A stretch of 35,004 bases of DNA from the IMG/VR virus record IMGVR_UViG_3300020044_005297, positions 1 through 35,004 of that record. One strand, written 5' to 3'. The notes under the pieces are model-generated. The model searched no databases and was not told the DNA's origin. It saw only the letters and a list, made by a program, of their open reading frames with translations. This DNA is from a virus (Duplodnaviria > Caudoviricetes). Below are positions 10,931-29,481 of the stretch, in pieces. How positions within the stretch are numbered: the first letter of the stretch is position 1; every line of letters begins with the position of its first letter. The position numbers and the translations under genes are program-made.

Positions 10931-11180
10931 ATCATTCCTTGAATTCCTGATGGATAAAGGAGCGTCTAAAGCTGAACGCATAATGATGACCATGGACGAT
11001 GATGACTTCATGAGATTTTATACACAGATGATTGAGTTCGCTGCACCTAAGCGGCAGAGAGTAGAACAAGAAACTAAGACAGACACTACGCTTAACATCG
11101 TGGTGAACTGGGATGAAGACACCAAGTTTATCCATAGACCTTCAACGTCCGCACTTGAATCAGCGGAAGGTGTTGACTGA
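10902..11180 (+). CDS. putative terminase small subunit
   Basis: Small helical protein (EFAAPKRQRVE..NIVVNW) immediately upstream of and overlapping TerL. Confidence 0.5.
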   Translation: MSKKRKPGFESFLEFLMDKGASKAERIMMTMDDDDFMRFYTQMIEFAAPKRQRVEQETKTDTTLNIVVNWDEDTKFIHRPSTSALESAEGVD

Positions 11181-12339
11181 AGCCAAGCGGTTTAATCTAC
11201 TTAAATGTGGGAGACGGTTCGGGAAATCTACCTTGAGTATATTCAAGGCGGCAGAAGCTCTGTGTCGTGGTGAGTCGGTGGCTTACTTCGCTCCTACTTA
11301 CAAGGATGCGGCTGAGTGGTGGAACGAGGTAACAGCAAGGTTACACGGGCTTATAACTGCCAAGGATGCGACCATGAAACAGATACGGACTATTACCGGT
11401 GGTAAGTTGGACGTTTGGTCATTCGATAATCCTGATAGCGGTCGTGGTCGGAAGTACCATCTTGTATTGATTGACGAATGTGAGAAAGGAGGGAACTTCG
11501 AGAAGGCTTGGAAGCAATCCATCAGACCGACACTGACCGACTATAAGGGTTCGGCTTGGTTCTTTAGTACTCCGCAGTTTGGTAAGACGTTCTTCAAGGA
11601 GATGTATAACTATCAGGACAGACTTGAAGAGTGGAAGTCATGGCGATTCACCACTTACGATAATCCATTCATAGATCCGGCAGAAGTAGATTCGGCAAAG
11701 ATGGAGCTTGATCCGTTGACATTCGCATGTGAATATTTAGCTGAAGATGTGGACTTATCGAATAAGCCATTCGCCTACTGTTTTGATAAGAATAGGCACA
11801 TCAAGCCGGTTCAATTTGATACTGGTCAGTACTTACATCTATCATTCGACTTCAACGTAGACCCCATTACTTGTGTAGCGAGTCAGTATATTGCCGGAGA
11901 GATACGGTTCATCAAAGAGTTTAGACTATCGAATAGTAATATCTACGAGCTTTGCGATAGGATCAATATCGCCTATCCTCAGGCTGTCTTCATGGTTACG
12001 GGTGATGCCAGTGGTCAGGCTCGGTCGGCTCTTACTATTGGTAACATTAACTATTATTCGGTAATCAAGGATAAGCTTCGGCTCAACTCCAATCAGTTCA
12101 AGGTACCATCGGTTAACCCGGCTATCAGTGACTCTCAGGTATTGACGAACTCAATCCTTCAGAACCATGTGGTATACTTTGATCCGTCCATGACATGGAC
12201 TATTGATGATATGCTGTACGTTGAAGTCACAGAAACGGGAGACATTGACAAGGCAAAGGATAAACACCGAAGCCACTTATTAGATGCTGTTAGATATACA
12301 TTCAATACATTCCATAAACACTTAATTCGATCAATATGA
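11113..12339 (+). CDS. terL: terminase large subunit
   Basis: GRRFGKS Walker A, LVLIDE Walker B, STP motif, SFDFNVDP and HLLDAVRY nuclease motifs. Confidence 0.93.
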   Translation: MKTPSLSIDLQRPHLNQRKVLTEAKRFNLLKCGRRFGKSTLSIFKAAEALCRGESVAYFAPTYKDAAEWWNEVTARLHGLITAKDATMKQIRTITGGKLDVWSFDNPDSGRGRKYHLVLIDECEKGGNFEKAWKQSIRPTLTDYKGSAWFFSTPQFGKTFFKEMYNYQDRLEEWKSWRFTTYDNPFIDPAEVDSAKMELDPLTFACEYLAEDVDLSNKPFAYCFDKNRHIKPVQFDTGQYLHLSFDFNVDPITCVASQYIAGEIRFIKEFRLSNSNIYELCDRINIAYPQAVFMVTGDASGQARSALTIGNINYYSVIKDKLRLNSNQFKVPSVNPAISDSQVLTNSILQNHVVYFDPSMTWTIDDMLYVEVTETGDIDKAKDKHRSHLLDAVRYTFNTFHKHLIRSI

Positions 12340-13578: not shown

Positions 13579-13586
13579 TACCTTTG
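13579..13586 (+). promoter_or_regulatory. Bacteroidota -7 promoter element
   Basis: Intergenic TACCTTTG(C) about 20 nt before the ORF at 13606. Confidence 0.6.
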
Positions 13587-13605
13587 CATATAAAACCTTA
13601 AGACC

Positions 13606-13947
13606 GTGTCAATTAACGTCTGTGATTTATGTTACTCGTTAGTAGTGAGTCAATGTTCTAACTCCTACACCTTACCTATAACATTGATACCATCAACAGC
13701 TTATAAGATGTGGGTTGAGGATATGCACGGGAACATCTTTCAGTATTCAAGCACTACCAACGGAACTGGAAAGTTCACATTGATTACTACTGAATTTCCC
13801 GAAGGTATGTTCAATCAATGGAGTGGTACTTATGAAGTTACCTTCAACTATTCATTGGACAATCAGACTTTTGAGCCGTTCACTATTGATGGTGGTACAT
13901 ACCAGTGTATGTTATTAAGTTTCGCAAATAAAGAGGCAGTAAACTAA
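13606..13947 (+). CDS. hypothetical beta-rich (probably virion) protein with N-terminal CxxC
   Basis: VCDLC..QC..YQC; S/T/aromatic composition like structural proteins. Confidence 0.65.
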   Translation: MSINVCDLCYSLVVSQCSNSYTLPITLIPSTAYKMWVEDMHGNIFQYSSTTNGTGKFTLITTEFPEGMFNQWSGTYEVTFNYSLDNQTFEPFTIDGGTYQCMLLSFANKEAVN

Positions 13948-14321
13948 TGGAATTTGGTTGGCTATTCTTACTTTTAGTAGGTTTCATTAACTCCCTTGTC
14001 ATCTTCGGAGTTAACAAGGCTACTCACTTTGAGTACTGTCATCCGGATGATACCGAAGAATACTGCAAGAATGGTATTGACCTTGATAGTCGGATGATCT
14101 TGTATCGTCTTCGTTTATGGTCACTTAAGCATATCGGCGAGTTTTGGAGTAAGCCATTATTCACCTGTCCTCCATGTATGGCTTCGGTACATAGTACTTA
14201 CGTCTATTGGTTTGCTATGCCGTTTAATATTCAATCACTGGCTATATGGCCATTCTACATACTTATGTTATCAGGATTAGTCAGTCTAATCAATTCAGTC
14301 ACTAAATATGGAAATTCTTAA
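13947..14321 (+). CDS. membrane protein with CxxC (DUF1360-like)
   Basis: N-terminal TM, KPLFTCPPCMAS, C-terminal TM(s); extra Cys31 and Cys40. Confidence 0.65.
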   Translation: MEFGWLFLLLVGFINSLVIFGVNKATHFEYCHPDDTEEYCKNGIDLDSRMILYRLRLWSLKHIGEFWSKPLFTCPPCMASVHSTYVYWFAMPFNIQSLAIWPFYILMLSGLVSLINSVTKYGNS

Positions 14322-14598
14322 GGAAGCACTTGAACGTAATGGATTCACATACGTCGGACCGTGTAAGATATGCGGTGGTCGTGGGTTTGAATACGTTAGA
14401 AACAAAGCCAAGGCAAAGATTAAAAAAGACCTCAATGGTCGTGAACTTCAGATAACACTGAATGGGTTCGCAGATAACGGACGGCGTATCATCGATACGT
14501 TGATCCGGGTTAAAGAACCTGGTCATGTGGAGAACATCGATAACATTATTCAACGGGAATTAGGACTACTCAATGAGCAAGAAGAGACAAACAGCTGA
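14308..14598 (+). CDS. hypothetical protein with one CxxCxGxG motif
   Basis: GPCKICGGRG. Confidence 0.65.
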   Translation: MEILKEALERNGFTYVGPCKICGGRGFEYVRNKAKAKIKKDLNGRELQITLNGFADNGRRIIDTLIRVKEPGHVENIDNIIQRELGLLNEQEETNS

Positions 14599-15166
14599 AC
14601 AGCCTTGGACCGTTGAAGAGGGTCACGTTATTATCCCGGCTTTCGAGTCGGGAGGTATTCAGTATTACATGATGAAGGATATCTTCAATTCCTTCAGTGG
14701 ACGGGCTTTGGATGCTATGGCTATCTACGAGAAGTGGTCACTTCGCTGTAGTCCTGACTTTATGAAGTCGTGGATGGATGGGCTTGAGAATACCATTAAC
14801 GCTAATCCAATCAAGATAACGGAAGTAGCTGAGATGATCAATGTTATGAGGGAGAGGCTATCATTCGCTTTGCCTACTGAACAAATCATTTGGGAACTGG
14901 CTTCTGTTGCTTTCTTCGACAGGAACGAGAGTCCATACCGATATGACGAAGCTTACGCCAAGGATAAGATTAGTCGATGGAAGGAGGACATCGGACTACC
15001 TGATTTTTTTTTCAAGACCCCGTTAAGGGATTTGGTCAGCTTACCAGACTTATCGGAGGAAGGTTTAAAGAATTATTTGAAAATAGTGGAGGGAGTAGAG
15101 GGGAAGCAATTAGAGAAAGTCCTTTCAAAGCTTACATCCAGTCAGCTGAGAGTCGCTTCCTTATAG
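14573..15166 (+). CDS. putative tail assembly chaperone (short form)
   Basis: Directly upstream of the tape measure gene; contains a T9 slippery run. Confidence 0.6.
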   Translation: MSKKRQTAEQPWTVEEGHVIIPAFESGGIQYYMMKDIFNSFSGRALDAMAIYEKWSLRCSPDFMKSWMDGLENTINANPIKITEVAEMINVMRERLSFALPTEQIIWELASVAFFDRNESPYRYDEAYAKDKISRWKEDIGLPDFFFKTPLRDLVSLPDLSEEGLKNYLKIVEGVEGKQLEKVLSKLTSSQLRVASL

Positions 15167-15297
15167 GTGTTAGGTTACGTTCTGAATTCGGAATTGACCC
15201 TAACAAACTGAATCTGTACGAATACTATCTGTTAATAGAACAGTTAGAAAAAATGAGCAATAGTGGCGGAAACAGTCGTAATCAACATCGAAGCTAA
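15004..15297 (+). other. -1 frame extension of the tail assembly chaperone (G/GT-type programmed frameshift)
   Basis: GAT TTT TTT TTC at 15002-15013; the -1 frame opens right after TGA 15001-15003 and stays open for 97 codons to TAA 15295-15297. Confidence 0.65.
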
Positions 15298-17728
15298 TAC
15301 TACTGGGTTACAGTCAACCATTGACTTACTCGTCAAGTTGGGTAGTGTAGAGAAGTCAGTAGCGGAAGAGTTTAAGAGAGTTAACGAGGCTAATGTAGCC
15401 AGTCTGAACAAGGCAGCTACGGCTACTACTAAGCAATTCGAGCAAGTAAAGAAAGCCGTTGAAAGTGTCAAGGCTGATAATGGACTGGCTAAGGCTTTAG
15501 ATATATCCAAGGAATCTGTAGCAGTTGGTAACACATTTAAGTCATTAAAGACTCAACTAAAAGAGGCTACGTTAGAGGCTCAGAATCTTGCTGAGAAGTT
15601 CGGGGAATTAGATCCTCGGACGGTAGCGGCGGCTAAAAGAGCAGGAGAGTTAAAGGATAAGATTGGTGATGTTAACGCTCAGATCAAGGCTTTAACTCCT
15701 GAGGGTAAATTCCAAGCTATTCAGAATCTTGGTGGTGCTATTGCCGGAGTGTTTCAAGTAGCTACAGGTGCTTTACAAGCTTTCGGGGTAGAGTCTGAAC
15801 AGGCAACTAAGATAGCCCAACAGTTTCAAGGGGCTTTGAATATCTTCGGGGGACTGTCACAGCTAAGTCAGTTTAAGGACTCACTTGTAGCGGTACAATC
15901 GGCTTTAGGGTTAACTACGGTAGCAACTCAAACACAGGTAGTAGCTACGGAGGAACTGGCTGTCGCTGAAGGAGAGGCTACGGTAGCTCAGACGGCTTTA
16001 AATACGTCTATACTTGCTAACCCTTACGTTATAGCGGCGGCGGCTTTGGCGGCTTTAGTTGCAGGTATGTACTTATTCTCGACAGGTGCTGAAGATGCTA
16101 AGATCAAACAAGATGCACTCAATGAATCTATATCGGCTAATGATGCTGTCTATAGTAGAACCAATAAACAATTAGATGAAAGAGACAGAAAAGTATTAGC
16201 ACAGATAGACAATGAGATAGCTTTAGCTAAGGCTCGTGGAGCTTCTACATTGGAGATATCTAAACTTGAAGAAAATAGAATAAAAAAGGAACAAGAACTT
16301 ATTGATTTGCGAATAGATGCAAATGATAGATCCATAATAGCAGATCAAAAAAACGTACAGGCGGCTGTAGCTTTATCTAATGATGAAAACAAGGAAAAGG
16401 CTCGTTTATTAGGATTACAAATCAAAGACAAAGAATTTGCTAACGAGCAGTTATTAAATAAGTCGGAAGAGCTTGACGCAAAATTAAAGATATTAGAAGC
16501 TCAAAGGACTGCCGATGTTAAGAAGGAATTAGATGCTCAGGTTAAGGCTCGTCAGGAAGCTACTGAAAAATTAAATAAGGAGTCATTCGATAAGCAATTA
16601 GCCGCCTTAACCAATAGATTCAAACAGGAAAGAATCGAAGCAGGTAAGACGGCTACTACGGTTGAAGGGTATAAGATAGCGGAAACTAACATCACAACCC
16701 GTGAACTACAGGCTCAGTTAGACCTGTATAAGAAGTTCGGAATGGATACAACAGATATCCGTCTGAAGCTTCAAGAACAGGCAAGGAATAACCCTATCGA
16801 GATTGTCACCAAGTTTGATGATACTTCTCCTGCCATACCTGATGACTGGGAGAAAGCCGCTACTACTCCTGTTGTTGTTCCAATAGTAGTTGATCCGCAG
16901 TTAGAAGAAAATCAGAAAAAGCTTGACGATTTACAAAAGGAATTGTCTACAGCCTTTAAGGATTTGCTTCAAGAAATTGCTTCGAGTGCCATATTCAATC
17001 CTATTTTTCAAGGATTAGAGGATCAAATTAAAATAACAGAAGAGCTTCGGGATGCTGAATTGGAGGCAATTAAAACCGAAGAAGAGGCTTTGTTATCAAG
17101 TTATGAGAACCGAAGAATTGGTAAACGTGAACTCGAAGAGTCACAGAAGAAGTTAGCTTTAGACCGTGTAGCGGCTGAGAAGAAAGCTGAAAAGGAACTT
17201 AATGAGTTAAAGCATAAGCAAGATGTAGCTAATAGGAATCAGAAGCTATTCGACATCGCCTTGGCTACATTAAGAAATTCATTAGAACAACCCGGACCAC
17301 TTGGGGCGTTTATTCCATACTGGATAGGTCTTGGAGCTGTTCAAGCGGCGGCAGTATTGGCTCAACCATTACCAAAGTATAAAAAGGGTACTCTCTCAGT
17401 ACCGGGTGTAGGCTCTGAAGATAGCCACATGGCTATGTTACAACCCGGAGAGGCTGTCATTCCTACGGATACTAATCGTAGATATAAGACGGCTATTGAG
17501 GCTATCTATAATAACAAGATAGATCCTAACGATATCAATTCTTGGGTATCTTTACGATTAAGGGGAGGTATTAACGAAGGGGTTAATTCACGCCCAGTAA
17601 CAGCTAAATTGGAGACAGCTGACCTTTATGAACTTAGTAGAATGATGAAAAAGAATAACGGTGTATACATCCGTAACATGGGAGACTTCGCTACTATTTT
17701 TGAGAACATGAATAATCCTCGCAGATAA
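15263..17728 (+). CDS. tape measure protein
   Basis: 821-aa Ala/Lys/Glu-rich helical protein with an ANPYVIAAAALAAL hydrophobic segment and C-terminal KYKKG..AMLQPGEAVIP motif. Confidence 0.85.
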   Translation: MAETVVINIEANTTGLQSTIDLLVKLGSVEKSVAEEFKRVNEANVASLNKAATATTKQFEQVKKAVESVKADNGLAKALDISKESVAVGNTFKSLKTQLKEATLEAQNLAEKFGELDPRTVAAAKRAGELKDKIGDVNAQIKALTPEGKFQAIQNLGGAIAGVFQVATGALQAFGVESEQATKIAQQFQGALNIFGGLSQLSQFKDSLVAVQSALGLTTVATQTQVVATEELAVAEGEATVAQTALNTSILANPYVIAAAALAALVAGMYLFSTGAEDAKIKQDALNESISANDAVYSRTNKQLDERDRKVLAQIDNEIALAKARGASTLEISKLEENRIKKEQELIDLRIDANDRSIIADQKNVQAAVALSNDENKEKARLLGLQIKDKEFANEQLLNKSEELDAKLKILEAQRTADVKKELDAQVKARQEATEKLNKESFDKQLAALTNRFKQERIEAGKTATTVEGYKIAETNITTRELQAQLDLYKKFGMDTTDIRLKLQEQARNNPIEIVTKFDDTSPAIPDDWEKAATTPVVVPIVVDPQLEENQKKLDDLQKELSTAFKDLLQEIASSAIFNPIFQGLEDQIKITEELRDAELEAIKTEEEALLSSYENRRIGKRELEESQKKLALDRVAAEKKAEKELNELKHKQDVANRNQKLFDIALATLRNSLEQPGPLGAFIPYWIGLGAVQAAAVLAQPLPKYKKGTLSVPGVGSEDSHMAMLQPGEAVIPTDTNRRYKTAIEAIYNNKIDPNDINSWVSLRLRGGINEGVNSRPVTAKLETADLYELSRMMKKNNGVYIRNMGDFATIFENMNNPRR

Positions 17729-19674
17729 TGTTCAAATTCTATCTGAATGGCACTGAAGTAGTAGACCATCCCGAAGGGTGGAATAACATAGACACTACCG
17801 TTAAACGGGATGTCTTTAGTGGTGGATTGTTTTTTGATGCAAATATCAAGCTCGTAACATACGGAGGTCAGGATTTATATTCATCGCTTCAATCTTTATG
17901 GAATGCTGATCCGTTTGGTGTTTCCTCGTTTGATATCTTTCAACGTAGTGGAACGGCTGGTTATGTACTTATCCATGCAGGAATTGTATTCCATTCGGAC
18001 CTTAAGTTTAATCTCGTTAACAATAATATAGAATTCAAGGTCGATGATAACGGTTGGTATTCCAAGCTAAAGAATAACCAAAGGTTGGATGTCAATATGG
18101 GTACTTCTTTATCGAAGAATCAGATAGCCATTCAACCCATTTCACACTTTGATCTATCATTCCACAGGGTAAGTAACGGAACATACTACGCTGACACTCG
18201 GAACGCTTACAAGGTCTATGACTGTCTGAAGTTCTTGGTGGACTTCATGTCTGATGGAGAAGTAGAATTCGAGTCTGATTGTTTCAATGTCGGTGGTATT
18301 TACGAGTACTTTTGTATCGTAAACGGTCACGAACTATGGGCACATGACCATACTCAAAGTCCTCGTTTAAACTTTGCTTTATTATTTGGGGATTTAAAGA
18401 AGCGGTTAAATGTTCGGTTTGCCATCGTTAATAACGGGGCAACTCCTACCATTAAGATAGAACCGGCTGACTACTTCTATGATACGTCTACGGCTTTCAC
18501 TTTGCCTGATACACCTGATGAAATATCCATCCAAGCGGATTCATCGATTATGTATAGTGCTATCGTTGTAGGTTCGGAAAAGTATGAGACTACTTCATCA
18601 ATGACTTTTCCTGATATTCAAAATTTGATAGCTTTCCGACAAGAAAGTCTCCATTTTGAAGGGGTTAATAACATAGATAATGAGTTAGATTTGGTTGGTA
18701 AGCTCGTAGTATCCAACAGTTCTATTGACCTTTGTTTACAACTTCTTTCGGGATATGACTCGTATGACGAAGATAACTTCATGGTTCAGTATACTGGATT
18801 GAATCAGACACATAAGTCAGATTGGGCAGGTACTGGACATCATCTGTATAATGAGCAGTTGAATAATATAAACACACTTCAGAGATGGGCTAACTACATT
18901 CCGGGTAATGTTATCGCCAACTTTAATAATACGACTACCGGAAGGATGTTGGCTTTTAATACTGTCCTTCGTACTGGCTCTAACATTGGGTCGGCTTCAA
19001 CCATTGGTCCTATTCAGTTTGACGATGACTATACCCGTGGCTTTGATCCTAACGGAGTCTATGGAGGTTCTACGGCTCAGGGTTCACCCGTTAGTCAGGT
19101 ATTAAGTATCTACACAGCTCCTTCCAATGCTAATCTGACTTTCAGTAGTCAGGTAAGTATGGATACTATTGTTACGGGAGGTACAATACCATCAGTTCAG
19201 ATATTCTTCCAAAAGTTTAACGCTTCAAATACTGTAATCGATGACTTTAGTGGTCCATTGGTTCAGATGAATGTGTTCTCCGGTCAACAGGGTCCTACTG
19301 TTATATCAGCTTCATGGAATACCTATCTCAACACAAGTGAGTATATCGCTGTTTATGTCAAGTGTAATACGGGAGGATTCTTCTATAACATCAGACCGAA
19401 TGATACTTTCTTAAGTTGCAATGGTATCAATACGGGAGGCGGTACGGTATTGGCTTCAAATAGTGGAGTATTTAAGTGTTACAAAGTTAATTTCAAGTAT
19501 CCGATTACATTGGCTGACTTTCAAACGATAGGCAATAGTAAAAACGGACTGATTTCCATACCTTTGCACAATAACAGATCAATTCAGGGATGGGTTGATA
19601 ACATCAAGTTTGACAATAGTTCCGGGGAAACAACCTTCACACTTATAAGCGATGGCAATACAGTTTATCGATAA
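17728..19674 (+). CDS. tail tip / baseplate hub protein
   Basis: Follows the TMP; MFKFYLNG..DHPEGW start; beta-rich insertion near the C-terminus. Confidence 0.65.
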   Translation: MFKFYLNGTEVVDHPEGWNNIDTTVKRDVFSGGLFFDANIKLVTYGGQDLYSSLQSLWNADPFGVSSFDIFQRSGTAGYVLIHAGIVFHSDLKFNLVNNNIEFKVDDNGWYSKLKNNQRLDVNMGTSLSKNQIAIQPISHFDLSFHRVSNGTYYADTRNAYKVYDCLKFLVDFMSDGEVEFESDCFNVGGIYEYFCIVNGHELWAHDHTQSPRLNFALLFGDLKKRLNVRFAIVNNGATPTIKIEPADYFYDTSTAFTLPDTPDEISIQADSSIMYSAIVVGSEKYETTSSMTFPDIQNLIAFRQESLHFEGVNNIDNELDLVGKLVVSNSSIDLCLQLLSGYDSYDEDNFMVQYTGLNQTHKSDWAGTGHHLYNEQLNNINTLQRWANYIPGNVIANFNNTTTGRMLAFNTVLRTGSNIGSASTIGPIQFDDDYTRGFDPNGVYGGSTAQGSPVSQVLSIYTAPSNANLTFSSQVSMDTIVTGGTIPSVQIFFQKFNASNTVIDDFSGPLVQMNVFSGQQGPTVISASWNTYLNTSEYIAVYVKCNTGGFFYNIRPNDTFLSCNGINTGGGTVLASNSGVFKCYKVNFKYPITLADFQTIGNSKNGLISIPLHNNRSIQGWVDNIKFDNSSGETTFTLISDGNTVYR

Positions 19675-21658
19675 CCAACCTATTACATGGCGTACTGATT
19701 GGGCGACAGATAGCGATTGTAAGACATCGAATGAACTGGCCTGTACTATTTATAGCAACAACGATACTCTATTCGCTCAATGGCAACAGACACCGTGTGG
19801 AACAGGGTCTAATAAGCTTTGTAATCCGACATTCACCAATGGTAACACGGATTTGGTTACAAACGGTTCTTTTACAACCAATAGCACAGGATGGACACTT
19901 GGAACGGGCGTAACCCGTGATGCTGTCAATAAACGGATTCAGTTTCCCGGTACTACTTTGGCTACGGCTTTAAGTCAGACATTGACCATGTCAGCAGGTA
20001 ACTACTATCAAGTTACCTATACCATTGGAGGAAATACAACGGGGAGTATAACGGCTAAATTAGACGGAACGTCAGGAGTTACCCGATTCTCTCCGGGTAC
20101 TTATACCGAATACATTCAGTATACTGGAGGTACTAACTCCATCGTATTTTCAACTTCGGGGTTTAACGGATGGATTGATGATATTAGCGTTAATTTAAAC
20201 GGTATTAGTTCGGGATGTTGGCAGACTTCTTTTCCTTCAAGGTGGCAGATCAATACTAATGGAAGTATAACCAAGGTAGCAGGATTGGCTGATACACTTG
20301 GAGGAACTATCAATAGTTTTAACGTAGGTTCATACCTTAAATTAAGCTTTAGGGTTAGTGGTTTGTCAGCAGGTTCGATGGGATTTGAAATGGTTGGTGT
20401 GTCTCTATTGGATACAATTACCACTGATGGAATATATACTTACTACACTACAGCTCCGACAGTTGGAAACATTAACTTCCATCCTGACGCTAATTTCGAT
20501 GGAACTATATCTGATTTAAGTGTTTACGAATATTCCAACTTCTTTTCAGTAACATTAAAAGACAGTCATGGAGCTATCGTAGCCGATTTGAGTTCTGATG
20601 TTGAGTTATTCGAGGATAAGATTATCCTTAAGTATGATATGTACGATATAGATCCGGGCTGTTATGTTATAACCATTGGTGACGCTTGTGGCTATTCGTT
20701 AAGTCAGGATTTGATTACAAACTATTCCTTTACTGATGCAACAAAATGGAATGTTGACTTAACAGTTCCGGGAGGAGCTAACGGACAAACTGGATCTGTA
20801 GCAGGTGGAAAGTTAACGCTTGGAACATCAGCCGTAGGTGGATATAATGAGTGGAGAGTAACGGATACTGTAATTGGGGATATATTTCCTACGGCGGCTA
20901 CTACAATGGTTATTCAGTGGACCGTTGCTATGGGTGCTGTAACAGCCAGTCCTAACATATACATGAATGATAAGAATAGCCAGTATCACTTATTGGTTAC
21001 ATCGGCTGCAGCTAATACTACTTATACGGGAACTATAACGCTTTCTGGTCAACAGGTTGTATCGGGAATAAACCCACAATTAAGGGTATATTTGACTCCT
21101 GCCATTGCTTCAAGAACTATCGAAATCAATGACTTCCGTCTTCAGTTGATGTCTTACATACCCGGTCAGATGACTACCTACGATTCTAATTGTATCGAGG
21201 TTATCGATTATCCTGATTCAGAGAAATGCACTCAGTGGATTGGTGGAACTAATGGAGAGGACTCTTTCGGCTTTCACTTTAACCCCAATGATGCTACTCC
21301 GTTTCAGATTGGTGCTAGGGTCCGCTCTATGTTAATCAATCCAAAGTATTCGGGAGACATCAATAGGTATTCCAACGCCTCAGGGAAAAATATCATAACC
21401 AAGTCAAGTAGCGGAAAGCTTTACACGCTTTTCATAGATTATACTGATGAACATACACACGATTGGTTACGATTAGCCGTACTTTCGGACACTGTTAAGA
21501 TTGGAAAGTATTCCGGACAAGCTAACATCGATTATGTGTCTACAGATGGTGACTATTCGCCCGAATGGCCGTCTGCACTTGGTGACTGGCCATCGGCACA
21601 GGCTCGGATAGAAGTTCAGAAACAAACTGACGTTTTATATAACAATAATGCAGGATAA
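19652..21658 (+). CDS. tail protein (distal-tail-like) with carbohydrate-binding-like beta-sandwich inserts
   Basis: LVTNGSF..W..IDDISV type modules; Thr/Gly-rich; in the tail tip context. Confidence 0.65.
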   Translation: MAIQFIDNQPITWRTDWATDSDCKTSNELACTIYSNNDTLFAQWQQTPCGTGSNKLCNPTFTNGNTDLVTNGSFTTNSTGWTLGTGVTRDAVNKRIQFPGTTLATALSQTLTMSAGNYYQVTYTIGGNTTGSITAKLDGTSGVTRFSPGTYTEYIQYTGGTNSIVFSTSGFNGWIDDISVNLNGISSGCWQTSFPSRWQINTNGSITKVAGLADTLGGTINSFNVGSYLKLSFRVSGLSAGSMGFEMVGVSLLDTITTDGIYTYYTTAPTVGNINFHPDANFDGTISDLSVYEYSNFFSVTLKDSHGAIVADLSSDVELFEDKIILKYDMYDIDPGCYVITIGDACGYSLSQDLITNYSFTDATKWNVDLTVPGGANGQTGSVAGGKLTLGTSAVGGYNEWRVTDTVIGDIFPTAATTMVIQWTVAMGAVTASPNIYMNDKNSQYHLLVTSAAANTTYTGTITLSGQQVVSGINPQLRVYLTPAIASRTIEINDFRLQLMSYIPGQMTTYDSNCIEVIDYPDSEKCTQWIGGTNGEDSFGFHFNPNDATPFQIGARVRSMLINPKYSGDINRYSNASGKNIITKSSSGKLYTLFIDYTDEHTHDWLRLAVLSDTVKIGKYSGQANIDYVSTDGDYSPEWPSALGDWPSAQARIEVQKQTDVLYNNNAG

Positions 21659-22490
21659 GGGAATTCTCCTAATAGCTACTGGCCATCCATATTATAGCCA
21701 TATGGCTTTCAATCTATTGGTATCTATCAGGTATCATGTCCCTGATATGCCTATAGCTATTATCCAAGACGGTCAAGGATTTAACTTATTGGCTGATTAT
21801 CAGAGGGAAGAGTTCACCCATGTCATTGATCTTCCAAAGGAATTGACTGACGGTGACCCATACAAAGTCAAGCTTTACCTTGACGAACTGACCCCATTCA
21901 AAAAGACGTTATTCCTTGACGTTGATATGTTATGGGGAAACTTCAAGAGTCCATCAGATTTATTCAATGAATTGGATGGGAATGAATTCACCATCATCAG
22001 CCGATCAGAGCTTACACCTGATGATACAAGCTTATCAAGATGGTTTAATCTGAAAGAGGCTTCAGAGGCTTACAAATTGGATACGTTCTATGATGTAAGT
22101 TCTGAACTGATATACTTCGAGGGTAAACCGAAAGTCTTTCAGACGGCTCGAAAAGTGTATCTAAAGCCAAAGATGAATATCGCTCCGTTTGGGGCAGGTC
22201 TTCCAGATGAAGCTTTCTTTATGATTGCCATAGCAAAAGAAGGAATTCGTCTACATCAATGTCCCTTTGAGCCGACATACTGGGAACCAAGGTATCATCC
22301 AAAACAGCATAACCGAAAGCATATTGACGGCTTTTATGCTATGTCTGTAGGTGGAGCTTTTAGTTCCAATCACATTAAGAAGATATACGACAGTCTTTCA
22401 ACTCATTACCACAATTCATCGGGTAGGTTCTCTGAACCATACCAATTACAAAATAAAAGCCGTATTTTTAAAGAACGCAGGAAAATCTAA
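21648..22490 (+). CDS. glycosyltransferase (GT-A, GT8-like nucleotide-diphospho-sugar transferase)
   Basis: KGILLIATG..Y..MA..L..SIR, TPFKKTLFLDVD (DxD) and PDE motifs. Confidence 0.8.
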   Translation: MQDKGILLIATGHPYYSHMAFNLLVSIRYHVPDMPIAIIQDGQGFNLLADYQREEFTHVIDLPKELTDGDPYKVKLYLDELTPFKKTLFLDVDMLWGNFKSPSDLFNELDGNEFTIISRSELTPDDTSLSRWFNLKEASEAYKLDTFYDVSSELIYFEGKPKVFQTARKVYLKPKMNIAPFGAGLPDEAFFMIAIAKEGIRLHQCPFEPTYWEPRYHPKQHNRKHIDGFYAMSVGGAFSSNHIKKIYDSLSTHYHNSSGRFSEPYQLQNKSRIFKERRKI

Positions 22491-24265
22491 TGCCTATCAT
22501 CGATATTTCCCAATACCATCAGGGAGGCAAACGTCATCAGTTCTACGCTGATTCCGTTAAACAGTTTAACGATATTAAGGTTCACGCTATGGGTGAATAT
22601 CCTGTTCACCTGATATCTGAACGCCGTCCCGGGGAGTCTGAAACTATTAAGAGATACCGTGAAAAGATCTATGTCCCAAAAACTCAAGCGGCTCTATCCA
22701 AGGTCTTTAACTCCCTTCAGAAGATACGCAAATCTCAGGACTACGTCATCCGTTTCGATGATACAGTAGTTCCTCCAATGATAGCCAGTGAAGAACGTCC
22801 TTCAAAGTATTTGGATGATGATTTCCCTAAATACGGGTCACTCGATAACTGGTTCTGGTCCGTAGCTTTCAATCAGTATCTGATGGATGCTAACGCTTTC
22901 GTTATGATAGCTCCTCTAAATCCAATGAAAATGGATAACGAGTACTATCAGCCGTATCCAATGCTTTTCAATAGTCCTCAGGTACTTGATTATGTTGAAG
23001 GTCAATATGGTGTATTCAAGTCCATTGAAACGAGTACCTACCGTAGCGGAAACAGGACCTATCAAGGTGCTGTTTATTATTCCGTTGATGCTTTGTCCAT
23101 AGTTAAGTATGAGCAAGTTAATGCCAAAGGTGATTTTTCAGCGACTGAATTCCTTCACGGACTTGGTTACTTGCCATTGGTTAGGCTTAATGGGATGATC
23201 CTTAAAGACGGATTTGGAGACGCTTTGTATACATCCCGAATTCATTCAGTAGTCCCATCACTCAATGAAGCTGCTCGTGAATGGTCCGACCTACAAGCTG
23301 AAGTAGTTCAGCATATCCATAGTACCATGTGGGCTATCCATGGCAAGGAATGTAATTCATGCCGAGGTACTGGTTCCATCCCTAAAGCCGGACAGTCACC
23401 AATCCAATGTGATGAATGTAACGGAAAAGGATTCTATCCGTTTAACCCTTACGAACATATTACCATCAAGCCTCCGACAATGGGTGAGGCTATGCCTCCT
23501 ACTCCTCCTGCCGGGTACTTGACCAAGCCTATTGATATTGCCAAGCTTCAAGATCAACGGGTTCATGACCATATCTATCACGCTTTGTCTTCATTGAATA
23601 TGGAGTTTTTAGCCGCTGTTCCATTATCACAATCGGGTGTAGCTAAAGAAGTTGACAGAGCTGAACTCAATAACTTTGTGTATTCAATCGCTGAAGATTG
23701 TGTCCGTATTATTGATGAAATTTCGGAGATTGTTATTGACTATCGTTATGCAGGTATTATCCCTGATTACGAAGAACGTGAGAAATTACGTCCAATGATT
23801 TCAGTTCCTATGAAGTACGATATGATTCCGGAAAGCTTTATGGTCGATGAAATTTCAAAGCTCCGTACTGCACGGGTTAACCCGATGATTATCAACGCCG
23901 CTGAGCTTGAATACGCCGCTAAGAAATTCAATACTGATAAGAAGATTAAGCATAAGCTCGAAGACGTCTATCAGTTGGACCCATTGGCAGGACTGGCGGC
24001 TGAAGAGATTCTTGTAGCTGTATCCAATGGAGTCATAAACAAACGGACGTATATTATTCACTCCAATATATCTGAGTTTATTGATCTTGCTAATCAGCAA
24101 TATGAAGACTTTTATAAGTTACCATACCTTCAGAAACGTCAAATAATTAACGATTTGGCGGCTCAATGGGAAGCTGATAACCGTCCAAGAACTATTCCTA
24201 CCACAATACCTCAAATGATTACGGATGTCCCTCGTCCAGATTCAAACAATCCTCAATCGAATTGA
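22490..24265 (+). CDS. portal protein with a DnaJ-type zinc-finger insert
   Basis: 591 aa upstream of the minor head gene; HGLGYLP and QSGVAKEVDR motifs; two CxxCxGxG repeats. Confidence 0.8.
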   Translation: MPIIDISQYHQGGKRHQFYADSVKQFNDIKVHAMGEYPVHLISERRPGESETIKRYREKIYVPKTQAALSKVFNSLQKIRKSQDYVIRFDDTVVPPMIASEERPSKYLDDDFPKYGSLDNWFWSVAFNQYLMDANAFVMIAPLNPMKMDNEYYQPYPMLFNSPQVLDYVEGQYGVFKSIETSTYRSGNRTYQGAVYYSVDALSIVKYEQVNAKGDFSATEFLHGLGYLPLVRLNGMILKDGFGDALYTSRIHSVVPSLNEAAREWSDLQAEVVQHIHSTMWAIHGKECNSCRGTGSIPKAGQSPIQCDECNGKGFYPFNPYEHITIKPPTMGEAMPPTPPAGYLTKPIDIAKLQDQRVHDHIYHALSSLNMEFLAAVPLSQSGVAKEVDRAELNNFVYSIAEDCVRIIDEISEIVIDYRYAGIIPDYEEREKLRPMISVPMKYDMIPESFMVDEISKLRTARVNPMIINAAELEYAAKKFNTDKKIKHKLEDVYQLDPLAGLAAEEILVAVSNGVINKRTYIIHSNISEFIDLANQQYEDFYKLPYLQKRQIINDLAAQWEADNRPRTIPTTIPQMITDVPRPDSNNPQSN

Positions 24266-25127
24266 TTCAGCCGTTAACGGCTTTGTCAGGGGTCTTCCGG
24301 AAGTAGAACGGAAGGTCTTTGACCGTGTCATGGTGCTGATAAAACAGTTACAGATTGACAATCTTGGTAAGGTTCAAAACAATATCAACAACCTAAAGGT
24401 TCTAACACAACTAAATAAGGAGATAAATGACATTGTACTTTCCCCGGAATACAAAGACAAAGTATCTGCTTTCACGGGTGTCTTTGGTGACTTGTCTACT
24501 TTACAAAATGATTACTTATCCACTGTCTTTGATAAGTTCAAGCCTTCCAAAGTCCTTAAAGCTATCACTGATACAAGCGTGGATATTACTATCGATCAAC
24601 TTCAGGAAACAGGAGTAACGTCATCACTTGCCAGTGAACTTAAGGATATACTAAAGCAATCTATCACCACAGGCGGTTCATACGCTGAACTGACCGATAC
24701 TCTTAGAACTTCTATTCGTGGTAATGATCAGATAGAAGGTGGACTTATGAGATACGCCCGTACTTTTACTACGGATGCTATCAATCAGTTCAATGCTACT
24801 TATACTAAACAAGTTAGCCAAGACTTCAAAGCTGAATGGTATCGTTACACTGGCTCTAACATGGAGACAACTCGTGAGTTCTGCAAGGTTTTAAAAGATA
24901 AAGACGGTGGATACTTTCACATAAATGAAGTGCCGGGATTCTTGCAAGGGATAATAGGGAATAAACAGGTTGAGATATACTCCAAGTATGATCTACCTAA
25001 GGGGATGAATGAAGCCACTAATACAGATAACTTCTTCGTATTAAGGGGTGGCTATAATTGTGGACATCAGATCTTCCCTGTCTCCAAAGTCTCAGTTCCT
25101 GAATCGCTTCGCAGTAGGTTCGAGTGA
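24225..25127 (+). CDS. minor head / head morphogenesis protein (MuF/SPP1 gp7-like)
   Basis: YTGS..TTREFC and RGGYNCGH motifs; follows the portal. Confidence 0.8.
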   Translation: MSLVQIQTILNRIDSAVNGFVRGLPEVERKVFDRVMVLIKQLQIDNLGKVQNNINNLKVLTQLNKEINDIVLSPEYKDKVSAFTGVFGDLSTLQNDYLSTVFDKFKPSKVLKAITDTSVDITIDQLQETGVTSSLASELKDILKQSITTGGSYAELTDTLRTSIRGNDQIEGGLMRYARTFTTDAINQFNATYTKQVSQDFKAEWYRYTGSNMETTREFCKVLKDKDGGYFHINEVPGFLQGIIGNKQVEIYSKYDLPKGMNEATNTDNFFVLRGGYNCGHQIFPVSKVSVPESLRSRFE

Positions 25128-25276
25128 TTCCATTCACGGATAATTCGATTTATTATCTGCTGTCTACCTCTGAACTTTCCCATCAGTATAGATTTGGATT
25201 GTTCTTGAAGTATGATCTGTGCTACGTCATCACACATCTTAAAGGTAAAGGATAGACATCCTTCATCTTGCTTCAT
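25067..25276 (-). CDS. putative ribbon-helix-helix (Arc-like) regulator
   Basis: LSFTFKMCDDVAQII..GRQQIINRIIREW strand-helix-helix pattern; fills an otherwise empty gap and has a TATATTTG element upstream. Confidence 0.55.
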   Translation of the reverse strand: MKQDEGCLSFTFKMCDDVAQIILQEQSKSILMGKFRGRQQIINRIIREWNHSNLLRSDSGTETLETGKI

Positions 25277-25338
25277 TGGTCACCTCCGTGTTATAGTGCA
25301 TGAAATATACTAAAAATCTAATAATAATACAAGTTATA

Positions 25339-25346
25339 CAAATATA
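25339..25346 (-). promoter_or_regulatory. Bacteroidota -7 element for the minus-strand gene
   Basis: CAAATATA on + reads TATATTTG on -. Confidence 0.5.
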
Positions 25347-25409
25347 AAAACAAGCTGATACGAATAGAGACGTATTTATACGGAATTTTGCAGTAAAATC
25401 AGGCACTTT

Positions 25410-26309
25410 ATGGCAACTACAGCGGGTGAATTCATCACCAAATTGGCTCAAATGGCGGGACTATCTACATCAGATCCTGACATCGTTAGCATCCTTTCAA
25501 ATTCGGAATTCTCTAATTACAAGATTCCCGAATCAGTGACCAGTCGTATCAATGGTTCTATGTTAACTCCTGACTCAGCTCGTAATAATGAGGCTCTACG
25601 CCGTCATTATCACGCTGAAATCCTTAATGGATTGGATAACAACATCGAGACAGTTATTGAACGATTTGGTATCGATGGAGACATCGCAGATTCAGTTCGT
25701 AATGAGAAGAAGACTACCGAAAAGTACAATCGTCTAATAGAGCGATTGAATGACCTACACGCTAAGAAAGCGGCATCTACAACACGTTCAGACAAGCAAG
25801 AGCTTGAAAACGAAATCGGGAAACTAAACAATCAAGTCCGTGACTTGAATGAGAAGCTGAAAACAGCTCCGACAGAACGTGATTCTTTTTGGACTGAAAA
25901 GCTAAAGACTAAAGCTATTCAGAATATGCTGACCTCTTACAACTATGCAGGTGAAAAAGACATTCCAAAGGATGTACTTATCGAAACTGCTTCTGTTCTG
26001 CTTAATCGTAAGCTAAACGAGAATAAGATTCGCCTTGAGTACAATTCTGACCAAGATAATATCAGTCTGAAGACTGAATCAGGTATGGACTTCTATAAGG
26101 ATAATTCGCCCGTGTCCTTCAAATCCTTCGCCGATTCAGTACTTGCAGAATCTAAGCTATTAAGCATACCGGGTGCTAATAATGCACCAACTCAACAAGC
26201 CGCCTCACAACACCCATTGCCTACCCCAACTATTATTCAGGGCAGTGGAAAAAGTCAGGATATGTCAAGATACTTAGCGGCACTTGATGAAATTTCATCC
26301 GGACGATAA
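25410..26309 (+). CDS. capsid scaffolding protein
   Basis: Charged coiled coil with a Pro/Gln linker and short C-terminal helix; directly upstream of the MCP. Confidence 0.7.
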   Translation: MATTAGEFITKLAQMAGLSTSDPDIVSILSNSEFSNYKIPESVTSRINGSMLTPDSARNNEALRRHYHAEILNGLDNNIETVIERFGIDGDIADSVRNEKKTTEKYNRLIERLNDLHAKKAASTTRSDKQELENEIGKLNNQVRDLNEKLKTAPTERDSFWTEKLKTKAIQNMLTSYNYAGEKDIPKDVLIETASVLLNRKLNENKIRLEYNSDQDNISLKTESGMDFYKDNSPVSFKSFADSVLAESKLLSIPGANNAPTQQAASQHPLPTPTIIQGSGKSQDMSRYLAALDEISSGR

Positions 26310-26323
26310 TAAAATAGATAATA

Positions 26324-27439
26324 ATGGCTAACGGACTTGCCCCATATTTATTAAACGACCTTAAGACACTGGTCGGTCAGGCTTACCCTGCCCACGGAGT
26401 TGATCTTAAAGGTTTTCTTGGAATGCTGACCTCAGGACCAGGCGCAAACCCAATCCAAACCAACCAACTTAGCGGACACAAACGTGAAGTTCGTTTTTGG
26501 TATCGTAATCGTAACACGAAGCCTCAAACAGATACTTCTGCATCTTGTGACCAAGTGTTGACTCCTGCTCGTAAAGAGTATACCGTATCAGTAAGCAATA
26601 CTCGCCAAATCGCTTGGCACTTGCCTGATGAACTGGTAGCTTCTTACATGGATGAAGCTTCTCAGCGTGTATCTATCCCCGGTGGACCTATCGGCGGTGC
26701 TTCTGCTGAACTGTTTGACATCATTATGAGTGGTGCTAACGGTATTCTCAAAGGTGTTAACGATGACCTGATGGGTCTTATCACTTGGGGTAAAAACAAA
26801 GTAACGGGTAACAACTCGGCTACTACTTTGAATATGTCTCGTGATGCGGCTATCCAAAAGCTTACCACAGGTATGCCTCAGTTATTGAGCGAGTACAAAA
26901 AGAACAATCTTGCCGGTATGCCTAATATCGTAGGTGCTGGTTTGTTCTACTCTTGGTACTTAGCCAATGCTTACCGTGGTCAAGATCAAAGCGGTTTCCA
27001 ACCTGCTACCGCAGCCGGTATGTTCAACTTCTTCGCTGATCAGGATTTCGCTGATTCAGTAGGAGCTGATAACATCGGTGTGTTCGAGCCGGGTGCTATT
27101 CAGTTGGTTGAATATTTGGAATACACAGGATTTAAGGCAGGTGTTAAACCTGGTGCTTCTGAGTTCGGTGTTATCGCTCTTCCTGCTATGGCTTCTGACG
27201 GTACTATGTTACCTGTGAAATTCGATTGGCAGTTGAAGTACATCGACTGTCCTACGACTTTGACGGATGCTTACAGCGGTTCTTCTTCTACCTATCAAAA
27301 AGGTTGGAGCTTCATCATGAAGAAAGACTTCGGTCTGTTCCAACTTCCTTCTGATAGCTATCGTCAGGAAGATCCTAACTACGCTGTTAACGGTGCTTTA
27401 CGTTACAATGTGACCAATACTTGTGACACTTGTTCCTAA
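26324..27439 (+). CDS. major capsid protein
   Basis: 371 aa after the scaffold; codon usage typical of high expression (ggt, gct, cgt, ttc); ends in TCDTCS. Confidence 0.8.
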   Translation: MANGLAPYLLNDLKTLVGQAYPAHGVDLKGFLGMLTSGPGANPIQTNQLSGHKREVRFWYRNRNTKPQTDTSASCDQVLTPARKEYTVSVSNTRQIAWHLPDELVASYMDEASQRVSIPGGPIGGASAELFDIIMSGANGILKGVNDDLMGLITWGKNKVTGNNSATTLNMSRDAAIQKLTTGMPQLLSEYKKNNLAGMPNIVGAGLFYSWYLANAYRGQDQSGFQPATAAGMFNFFADQDFADSVGADNIGVFEPGAIQLVEYLEYTGFKAGVKPGASEFGVIALPAMASDGTMLPVKFDWQLKYIDCPTTLTDAYSGSSSTYQKGWSFIMKKDFGLFQLPSDSYRQEDPNYAVNGALRYNVTNTCDTCS

Positions 27440-27462
27440 TAGTTAATCGCTAACCAAAAACG

Positions 27463-28401
27463 ATGAATTGTCTAACGGACTATATCGGACTTTCCGGATG
27501 TGGGGCTTCAAGCCCTGCATCCGGTTTGTTTATTAACTCCCTTCCGGGTATAAGCTTGAAGTCGGTTGAACAACTGGCAGATGCTGAACAAAAGACTTAT
27601 ATCGGAGTATGGAACGATGTTCAACTCCGATCAACCAAACGACTTGAAATGATGCTCAACGCTGAGTTGAGTAAACAGCACAAAGTCAAGACAGGACTGG
27701 TCACATTCTTGACCAAGGCAGATGAACAGTTTACCAATCATGAATCTCTTCAATATGTCGCTTTTAAGATTGAAGCTGACTGTGAAAGCTACCTTCTGAG
27801 TCATTACATTCAATCAATTAAACTCAGGAAATTTGACTCAAATCAGGATACTCTTGTAACCATTACTGACCAATATGGTAACACTTTGTTTACCAATAAC
27901 TATTCATCTGATGGATCTGATGTTCAAACTTTTGAAGTGAATCAGATTTTCTATGAGAAGATTATCTATATTATTTTAAGTAATTCTTTTAACGAGTGGT
28001 TTTTAGATGACTACTCTTCTACATACATTGGATGTGTTCAGATTCAAGGTGGCACATCAGATAACTACGGGATGAGCTTTGTGGAGACATCCAAATCATA
28101 CGGTATAACCATCAACTACGGTCTACGCTGTTCACTGGCTAACCTTATGTGTTATGCTAAGGACCTATTCGCTATGCCACTTTGGTACTTGCTCGGTTCT
28201 GAAATGATGATGGAACGGATGACATCGGAACGGATTAACAAGTGGACCGTTGACCGTAAACAAGCTGAGGAACTTAAAGCTTATTATGATACAGAAGCTG
28301 AGAAGGCTTTAGGTCAAGCTATCGCAGGTACTTCTATTAACGATTGTAACTGTTGTATCCAGTGTGACCCGGTTATAGCTGTTCGGGAGGCTCGTCTATG
28401 A
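27463..28401 (+). CDS. head-tail adaptor-like virion protein (Cys-rich)
   Basis: Follows the MCP; helical termini around a beta insert; 10 Cys. Confidence 0.6.
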   Translation: MNCLTDYIGLSGCGASSPASGLFINSLPGISLKSVEQLADAEQKTYIGVWNDVQLRSTKRLEMMLNAELSKQHKVKTGLVTFLTKADEQFTNHESLQYVAFKIEADCESYLLSHYIQSIKLRKFDSNQDTLVTITDQYGNTLFTNNYSSDGSDVQTFEVNQIFYEKIIYIILSNSFNEWFLDDYSSTYIGCVQIQGGTSDNYGMSFVETSKSYGITINYGLRCSLANLMCYAKDLFAMPLWYLLGSEMMMERMTSERINKWTVDRKQAEELKAYYDTEAEKALGQAIAGTSINDCNCCIQCDPVIAVREARL

Positions 28402-28901
28402 TTAAAGTGACATCCAATCTTAAGGAGGTCACATCCCGTATATTAGGGAGATTACAGGCCATCAATGATCCAAATGGACCAGCCCGTGACAAGATGCTAC
28501 GGGTAATGGCTTTGGACACTGTAGCCGCTATGAAGGAAAGAATTCACGAGAAGGGGTTGAACTCTGAGGAACAATCACTCGGAGACTATACATCCAAATA
28601 CTTGAAGCTTCGGGATAAAGGGAAAGATAAGACAGGAAAGAGATATAACCGAGGATCAAGTTCAAAGGTTATTTTTAGCTTAACCCGATTGATGGAGAAC
28701 GATTTCAATATCGTATCAGGGGGTGGAAGTGGTTATAACCTTGGATTCAAAAATCCATTGAATGCAGATAAGGCTAATTGGTTACAACAGAATCCGAAAT
28801 TCGGTAAAGTTTACAAACCAACAGCAACAGAGGTAGAACACATGAAAGCTGTGGCAGAACAATTTATAACTGACTTACTCAACGGTGAAAATCCTCGATA
28901 A
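28398..28901 (+). CDS. neck / tail completion protein
   Basis: Basic protein; RIHEKG..G..Y..Y..R..VIFSLT motif; position in the neck cluster. Confidence 0.55.
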   Translation: MIKVTSNLKEVTSRILGRLQAINDPNGPARDKMLRVMALDTVAAMKERIHEKGLNSEEQSLGDYTSKYLKLRDKGKDKTGKRYNRGSSSKVIFSLTRLMENDFNIVSGGGSGYNLGFKNPLNADKANWLQQNPKFGKVYKPTATEVEHMKAVAEQFITDLLNGENPR

Positions 28902-29469
28902 AATAGTCACTATCTGTAACGATAATTTGGTAACTACGGTACTAAATGAATCGGCTTTTCAGAACTCTGCCATCTATGGACTATCCTATCAGACAGTTCC
29001 AAGAGATGAAAGTCCTCTGAGACCTTATACATGGATTGGAGACAATACAACAGGAATTGAGATTGATGACACCGTTAATTTCAGTATCTATCACAGATGC
29101 CAAAATATAAACTTTGTCGAAGTTTCCAATTCTTTTGGGGATGGGAACGGGATGATGGGAATGGTCTGTGATATGTACGCTGTAGTTTATGCTGATCGGT
29201 ATAAGACTGGCTATACTCAGGAAGACATCATAATGAAAATATCTGCAGGAATGAATCGTACATTTTCAAAAACTGAATTGGGTACATCAGGACTGCTAAA
29301 AGTAAAAACATCAGTACGCCGGGCGAATAACAACAGTGTACAGGTGTTTGAGGGTGAATATGGTAACGGGGCAAACTGTCCCTTACATTTAAATTCGGTC
29401 TATTTTGGTGTACAATACCAATTAGAAATTACTGCTTCCAGTTCGTGTCTGAACTGTTCTGACTGCTAA
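28885..29469 (+). CDS. tail terminator-like protein
   Basis: Precedes the tail tube gene; ends in CLNCSDC. Confidence 0.5.
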   Translation: MKILDKIVTICNDNLVTTVLNESAFQNSAIYGLSYQTVPRDESPLRPYTWIGDNTTGIEIDDTVNFSIYHRCQNINFVEVSNSFGDGNGMMGMVCDMYAVVYADRYKTGYTQEDIIMKISAGMNRTFSKTELGTSGLLKVKTSVRRANNNSVQVFEGEYGNGANCPLHLNSVYFGVQYQLEITASSSCLNCSDC

Positions 29470-29481
29470 TTATACTACAAA

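Follow-up and report, generated by a model that had tools for sequence, protein, structure and literature searches.

A three-helix membrane protein with an invariant CxxC pair as a candidate thiol oxidase for virion disulfides in a lineage of tailed phages

RESULTS

In the window, the whole 35,004-nucleotide stretch of viral DNA analyzed here, gene 13947 (genes are named by their start positions) encodes a small membrane protein, probably of distant DUF1360 type, and on balance we lean toward reading it as a membrane thiol oxidase that, with the product of gene 14308 as a shuttle, cross-links virion proteins in the cytoplasm. An oxidase with a shuttle fits the data best because of the invariant CxxC pair at the membrane edge, the two-Cys neighbor, the cotranscription with virion genes, and the recurrence of the family with disulfide-rich shells; against it stands the lack of a fold or profile match to any known thiol oxidase. 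The wider proposal, that a phage membrane protein forms virion disulfides, is plausible and turned out broader than first claimed.

The window and its CxxC cassette

The 35-kb virus record is that of a tailed phage. Profile annotation places a holin and an endolysin at 125-1017, and further genes encode Erf, an exonuclease, a primase-polymerase, and two glycosyltransferases ahead of a three-gene cassette (Table 1). TAnnTTTG promoters in the window, whose consensus we take to be that of Bacteroidetes, point to a host from this phylum, and the copy ahead of the cassette is presumably a Bacteroidetes-type -7 promoter element. The initial annotation had described three adjacent CxxC genes behind this element, and all coordinates and motifs were confirmed in the sequence, with genes 13606, 13947, and 14308 each overlapping its successor. 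CxxC motifs are present in 9 of the 49 window genes, versus 1.9 expected from residue shuffles, and three adjacent CxxC genes arose in 0.2% of 2000 such shuffles. Since five of the remaining six CxxC genes are virion genes farther downstream, the three consecutive genes are a piece of a wider pattern.

Table 1 Features of the window bearing on the CxxC cassette and its candidate substrates
Feature	Coordinates	Strand	Basis or comment
Terminase large subunit	11113..12339	+	Used as independent anchor
Putative TAnnTTTG promoter element upstream of cassette	13579..13586	+	TACCTTTG
113-aa soluble protein, CDLC at 6-9, 4 Cys	13606..13947	+	Sequence; candidate disulfide-bonded virion protein (substrate)
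Membrane protein of 124 aa with three predicted helices, probably of distant DUF1360 type; candidate thiol oxidase	13947..14321	+	Profile and model
C31...C40 loop pair of 13947, limited to close relatives	14037..14066	+	Alignment
C74-P-P-C77 of 13947, invariant pair opening second membrane helix	14166..14177	+	Family motif KPxxxCxxCM[AS]Sx[HW]
96-aa soluble alpha/beta protein, C19/C22 (CKIC 19-22) on hairpin turn, candidate shuttle	14308..14598	+	Model
Tail assembly chaperone in its G form; the product of -1 frameshifting would reach 15297	14573..15166	+	Frame analysis
T9 slippery site	15004..15012	+	In frame in 43/43 distinct relatives
Tape measure protein	15263..17728	+	phrog_9959, E 8e-9
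Two tail proteins, 7 and 9 Cys, candidate substrates	17728..21658	+	Profile match, Cys count
Portal, MuF-like, scaffold-like, putative major capsid, connector, and tube-like proteins, 7-10 Cys, candidate substrates	22490..30051	+	

The gene order between 11113 and 30051 is unusual, running from the terminase through tail genes to the portal and head genes. The capsid, connector, and tube genes were assigned by position only; the putative major capsid protein ends in CDTCS. The portal gene (22490-24265), followed by the MuF-like gene from 24225, encodes at residues 288-317 an insertion with two CxxCxGxG motifs of the DnaJ type (Pfam E 7e-4), which is probably a zinc finger. Glycosyltransferase genes lie within the morphogenesis cluster at 12336-13578 and 21648-22490; gene 21648, which is without a Pfam match, has a DxD motif that we take to be glycosyltransferase-like and is conserved upstream of the portal gene. 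Four loci (L043, L050, L052, and L053) carry blocks of ∼10 common extra genes at the glycosyltransferase region. The presence of such genes in the morphogenesis cluster makes virion glycosylation possible. Farther downstream, ORFs 30109, 30516, and 32876 are three paralogues, each starting with MSSTW.

An invariant CxxC pair at the edge of the membrane

A profile search with 13947 yielded 825 representatives at an E value of 0.001 or better, of which the best 150 were analyzed. Both C74 and C77 are present in all 150, followed in conservation by M78 (149), P70 and S80 (146 each), G21 (139), K69 and Y104 (133 each), and N15 (126), while the two inner residues of the CxxC vary freely. Between residues 24 and 67, 95 of these 150 proteins have no Cys, 42 have one, and 13 have two or more, and the viral relatives are mostly ∼95 amino acids long, without the loop. 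The initial annotation had seen in the loop pair and the CxxC the layout of VKOR and DsbB; this four-Cys reading fails because C31/C40 is not conserved and just C74/C77 is invariant. C31/C40 was accordingly rejected as a catalytic pair, loop Cys residues being confined to close relatives. With two conserved Cys residues only, a single-chain Zn site would have too few ligands.

The AlphaFold2 model of 13947 (pLDDT 95.5, pTM 0.85) has helices at residues 5-25, 53-62, 65-73, 75-90, and 95-122, with three membrane helices, the second of which (75-90) bears the CxxC at its N-end. In DsbB and VKOR, too, a membrane helix starts with the CxxC. The side that carries the CxxC and the C terminus has an excess of Lys and Arg residues in 150 of the best 150 proteins, and in 148 when just membrane-near segments are counted, the opposite side averaging just 0.3 Lys/Arg; the count is biased by the greater length of the CxxC-side segments. 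This excess beside the CxxC leads to a predicted cytoplasm-facing site, in agreement with the orientation proposed at the outset. No match to 13947 was found by tblastn among GenBank phages, and all 64 stretches confirmed in a profile scan are uncultured virus contigs.

Small three-helix membrane proteins of late operons are often holins, and one holin does appear low in the list of fold matches (rank 33, prob 0.15). It is nevertheless improbable that 13947 serves in lysis, exclusion, or some other accessory role at the membrane and has no part in virion Cys chemistry, given that the window already has its holin and endolysin and that such a role would leave the invariant CxxC, the two-Cys neighbor, and the linkage to cotY/cotZ described below unexplained.

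Relationship to DUF1360, VKOR, and DsbB

Curated families gave little: 13947 had no Pfam match, a search of 149 relatives against Pfam DUF1360 returned one at E 0.005 and 17.2 bits, below the 21-bit cut-off, none of the best 150 family members of 825 matched a PHROG, and the family profile found nothing among the sequences of solved structures. Among viral models, the neighbors of 13947 are an unnamed phage protein (E 4e-4), a DUF1360 protein, and a 139-amino-acid membrane protein of crAss001, which we take to be gp97 by length and hydrophobicity, though gp62 is equally long. The DUF1360 model matches that of 13947 with TM scores of 0.59/0.70 (prob 0.98, E 0.21), and the CxxC takes the same position. 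In sequence comparisons, a profile of the short relatives, run against a small set of mixed proteins, had only DUF1360-type proteins in its top 40 ranks (best E 6e-5 per 1000 sequences), hhalign of 13947 relatives against DUF1360 gave probabilities of 10-57%, and the short-relative profile aligned with an actinobacterial DUF1360 set over 93 columns with the CxxC in register, at a probability of 10%; the Atlas cluster of 13947 contains 17% DUF1360. The earlier label of DUF1360-like is thus supported by the predicted fold and weakly by sequence, and 13947 is probably a distant DUF1360-type protein, neither a VKOR nor a DsbB.

DUF1360 (PF07098; phrog_781), whose members include crAss001 gp97, PDS1 gp55, and cluster B gp7, has in common with 13947 a first helix, a basic amphipathic segment, a CxxC opening the second membrane helix, and a third helix, and the predicted folds superpose. 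The two differ in motif, CxWCxGxW in DUF1360 versus CxxCM(A/S)S in 13947, which falls below all curated cut-offs. A Pfam DUF1360 search over whole records missed both crAss001 gp97 and the window, so that profile absence of DUF1360 is weak evidence, including in the controls used below.

The Foldseek comparison with VKOR and DsbB suggested by the initial annotation gave no significant fold match: nothing in the PDB reached an E value of 0.001 or better, with human VKOR in second place (E 1.9, TM 0.20). A wide VIA structure search had its best Z score (7.0) with unrelated helical regions, with no VKOR or DsbB among the 50 matches listed. Bacterial VKOR (3kp9) gave Z 3.7 and an rmsd of 3.9 over 77 aligned residues of the 13947 model, a lead only, through its residues 98-183, which we take to be the CxxC helix of VKOR and its two flanking helices. 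Profile comparison with VKOR (11 sequences) reached an hhalign probability of 3%, the alignment being limited to the CxxC, and that with DsbB (17 of 25 loci gave a protein) stayed under 1%, with neither a CxxCxxxR motif nor a second loop Cys pair. The CPWC and CPYC motifs of DUF1360 and VKOR aligned over 21 columns with a probability of 27%. Direct kinship of 13947 with VKOR or DsbB was rejected, no fold or profile match being significant.

A literature search that spanned main texts, few of them from subscription journals, found no function assigned to DUF1360, and in the text so covered the sole relevant match for phage-encoded VKOR or DsbB was a giant-virus VKOR (PMC13486548). Separately, 11 loci (L163, L166-L174, and L178) encode DUF1360 proteins with an extra N-terminal helix; these belong to soil bacteria and bacteria with small genomes, and no phage context is evident around the genes.

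A conserved gene neighborhood with a two-Cys protein

To avoid selection on 13947, 80 loci were fetched by their terminase alone; a script located the terminase ORF in 75, of which 59 had at least 1 kb downstream of it. All 59 carry a 13947 homologue; they represent one lineage, including near-duplicates, without any gene-lacking member. From the terminase onward, optional extra genes come first, then a gene like 13606, next the 13947 homologue with a small ORF behind it, and last the chaperone and tape measure genes. In 48 of 53 distinct loci, the stretch from the terminase to the 13947 homologue contains a TAnnTTTG element, versus 27 expected from the locus-wide density of the element, which is mostly found 5-25 nt upstream of a start codon.

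The ORF between the 13947 homologue and the chaperone gene has a CxC or CxxC by rule in 42 of 50 loci; four of the other eight have a small CxC/CxxC ORF with a misplaced start, one has a single-Cys ORF, and three have none. Two Cys residues are the only invariant ones among 40 aligned relatives of 14308, a partly circular result given that the set was chosen for the pair, and their spacing is CxC in 32 of the 40, so that the CxxC spacing is not conserved. The model of 14308 (pLDDT 89) consists of a helix, six strands, and further helices; its Cys pair sits in the hairpin turn that follows strand 14-18, and there is no thioredoxin fold with a CxxC at a helix N-end. Fold searches with it returned no named family, with a best Z score of 5.3 and otherwise unnamed phage proteins. 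A neighboring CxxC protein had been proposed as shuttle or substrate, and 14308, as a conserved two-Cys protein, could be the shuttle. The two kinds of small Cys protein are bridged by one 14308 relative (L127:8359-8646), in which an N-terminal CxxCG motif occurs together with an internal CGC pair.

Relatives of 13606 are Cys-rich (3.6-5.0%), often have an N-terminal extension of 100-140 amino acids, and are missing from at least five loci; we read 13606 as a likely disulfide-bonded virion protein and candidate substrate. Gene 14573 is the tail assembly chaperone gene (G/GT): in 43 of 43 distinct relatives there is an in-frame T TTT TTT, and the -1 frame stays open for 90-109 codons, up to the tape measure gene. 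No database names this chaperone (14573-15297). The tape measure protein has no Cys in 33,130 residues, which was rejected as a signal, as controls likewise have 0-2.

The fixed position of 13947 beside the chaperone and tape measure genes would also suit a membrane anchor or chaperone of tail assembly whose CxxC binds a metal (Zn or Fe-S), either between subunits or together with 14308, the virion disulfides then coming from air oxidation after lysis. The two Cys residues of 13947 and the two of 14308 would make a full site, and no redox fold was found for 13947. We regard this explanation as unlikely, its weak points being the freely varying inner residues of the CxxC and, as laid out below, the settings in which the family occurs elsewhere.

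DUF1360 proteins in phages with disulfide-linked virions

Phages for which virion disulfides are described were compared for DUF1360 genes; for crAss001, PD491P1, and Jabs, these disulfides come from cryo-EM reports. In crAss001, disulfides are reported for the tail barrel, the fiber hubs, and gp57 (PMC10172136); its gp97, annotated as DUF1360 and matched by 39 records, is encoded outside the structural block. The virion of PD491P1 is disulfide-linked almost throughout, as cited in PMC13576161, and this phage has a protein, annotated as DUF1360 (45 records), that shares 98.8% identity with PDS1 gp55 and whose gene stands two genes ahead of the tape measure gene, the same order as in the window. 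Jabs, whose virion is described in a preprint as disulfide-linked throughout, is close to cluster MabL (PMC12993973); the MabL prophage T49-1 (PMC9934374), taken as its stand-in, has a DUF1360 gene upstream of the portal gene, as does the cluster B phage PG1 with gp7 (E 1.5e-10; 474 records). This variation in position, before the portal gene in PG1 and T49-1 and outside the structural block in crAss001, speaks against a metal-binding tail-assembly factor. On the other side, recombinant NBD2 tail tubes become disulfide-linked without such an enzyme, with spontaneous or cooperative formation offered as explanation (PMC13576161), and the authors of the Jabs preprint favor disulfide formation at or after lysis.

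Milano has no DUF1360 match in a profile search, despite its large disulfide network. Its gp4, of 81 amino acids, has CPCCNFYR ahead of one membrane helix and adjoins the 42-amino-acid MGCGCG virion-associated protein gp5 (both genes at L072:3913-4287); the gp4 type is also kept in 7-7-1 and OLIVR4. Its CxxCxxYR motif aligns with that of DsbB at a probability of just 0.3%, and gp4 is, judged from sequence, a candidate for an analogous oxidase. Small MxCxC proteins occur near the DUF1360 genes of T49-1, PG1, and 8 of 24 genome loci (L157-160, L164, L175, L176, and L179, two of them identical), and neither an MxCxC nor a two-Cys small protein was found beside PDS1 gp55 or crAss001 gp97. In PG1, the small MxCxC protein is read upstream of the annotated start of gp11 (L075 ∼9370-9641), where the frame is open and begins with ACGCGG, and the annotated gp11 is probably truncated at its N terminus. 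crAss001 gp5 (L062:2271-2468; 65 amino acids, 7 Cys), annotated as a ferredoxin-thioredoxin reductase, is a second redox candidate in the crassviruses.

The Cys content of the pooled portal, capsid, connector, and tube proteins, some of whose genes were assigned by position, is 1.81% in the window, 1.29% in PDS1, 1.27% in PG1, 1.22% in T49-1, and 1.07% in crAss001, versus 0.00% in Bxb1, 0.54% in 11b, 0.62% in BPs, 0.80% in p00, and 0.85% in HK97. The five carriers (1.07-1.81%) thus exceed the five hand-picked controls (0-0.85%; rank test, P 0.004), with HK97 coming near crAss001; Milano, without a DUF1360 match, has 2.08%, and the nonstructural genes of the window have 1.28%. The controls gave no match to the actinobacterial profile over whole records, with which PG1, T49-1, and PDS1 did match, and a motif scan of Bxb1, BPs, and HK97 covered their fetched parts. 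The expected association of the family with Cys-rich virion genes is hence supported, not decisively, by the higher shell Cys content of carriers.

An enzyme working in the reverse direction, keeping Cys-rich virion proteins reduced or reshuffling wrong disulfides until the final bonds form at lysis, would fit the same conservation, topology, and co-occurrence data, as the direction of transfer cannot be read from sequence. We nonetheless consider a reductase quite unlikely. The cytoplasm already holds thioredoxin- and glutaredoxin-type reductants, to which a dedicated reductase adds less, and the DUF1360 phages have anaerobic gut hosts, where air oxidation would presumably be scarce.

DUF1360 genes near spore coat genes in bacilli

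A sample of one phylum had DUF1360 in 7 of its 401 genomes, and one order within that phylum had it in 88 of 121 genomes. Its neighbors in bacilli belong to the CotZ, CotO, and SpoVAC families. CotZ is present in 65 of the 121 genomes, 50 of which have both CotZ and DUF1360. In 40 of these 50, no more than 3 kb separates the DUF1360 gene from cotY/cotZ, and a 5.5-kb limit takes in 41; the linkage is that of one inherited cluster. At the genome level, co-occurrence of DUF1360 and CotZ does not exceed chance (odds ratio, 1.6; P 0.31), 15 of the 65 cotZ genomes being without a DUF1360 match. The two conserved Cys residues of the 30 bacillar DUF1360 proteins analyzed are preceded by 4-11 Lys/Arg. 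In loci L181-L221, DUF1360 adjoins cotY/cotZ and cotO, and those without cotZ have spoVAC or family B7, which is coat-like and Cys-rich (8-10 Cys).

B. subtilis has a DUF1360 match, which we take to be YjcA, with its gene presumably beside cotV. yjcA is reported as a sigma-E gene (BSU11790; PMC517825) and is listed as a sporulation gene (PMC3533761). The location of the family beside cotY/cotZ in the tail-less context of bacilli is a further point against a tail-assembly factor with a bound metal. For disulfides that arise without an enzyme, in turn, there are the CotY lattices, which are described as disulfide-linked also when made in E. coli, with cooperativity proposed (PMC4950064); these speak against the necessity of a DUF1360 enzyme. 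A literature search on CotY and oxidoreductases returned nothing relevant.

DISCUSSION

In the mechanism that we infer for an oxidase with a shuttle, the CxxC of 13947 would be redox active and draw electrons from Cys residues of the assembling head and tail proteins, probably via the small two-Cys protein 14308, and would deliver them to an acceptor in the membrane, for instance a quinone. The loop pair that VKOR and DsbB have in cis would find its counterpart in a two-Cys shuttle on a separate chain, and the conserved polar helix residues N15, S80, and H82 could line a putative quinone site.

VKOR (PF07884) and DsbB/BdbC (PF02600) share with 13947 the membrane-edge CxxC at a helix N-end, but they have a four-helix bundle and a loop Cys pair, whereas 13947 has three helices in its model and no conserved loop pair; furthermore, the active site of DsbB faces out of the cytoplasm, while the CxxC of 13947 is predicted to be cytoplasmic. 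In poxviruses, E10R, A2.5L, and G4L are the genes of a pathway whose oxidase is of the FAD-linked Erv1 type and whose shuttle has a thioredoxin fold. Like the scheme proposed here, it is an oxidant chain that the virus itself encodes for virion proteins synthesized in the cytoplasm, and it combines an oxidase with a small Cys shuttle, but the components here would be a membrane protein and an alpha/beta protein without thioredoxin fold. This cytoplasmic disulfide pathway of poxviruses is cited in PMC13486548 and PMC13576161. Giant-virus VKOR modules, as presented in PMC13486548, resemble 13947, in its proposed role, in being virus-encoded membrane thiol-redox proteins; they are, however, true VKORs of eukaryotic viruses, outward-facing and tied to lipid modification (PMC13486548).

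More tentatively, and with some doubt on our part, DUF1360-type proteins may join DsbB and VKOR as a third family of membrane thiol oxidases, cytoplasm-facing and served by a tiny CxC shuttle. They would then build disulfide-armored shells within bacteria: in Bacillus spores the CotY/CotZ/ExsY layers, and in many tailed phages (this lineage, crassviruses, Bacteroides siphophages, and the mycobacteriophages of clusters B and MabL) the virions, with Milano-like phages using another mini CxxC membrane protein. If true, this would answer an open question of phage assembly, namely, how virion disulfides form inside the host cell, and would give DUF1360 a function, with a specific gene named in culturable phages (cluster B gp7, PDS1 gp55, and crAss001 gp97) and in Bacillus subtilis. 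It would also provide a two-gene tool for disulfide formation in the bacterial cytoplasm and would bear on the cross-linking of spore crust proteins in the mother cell.
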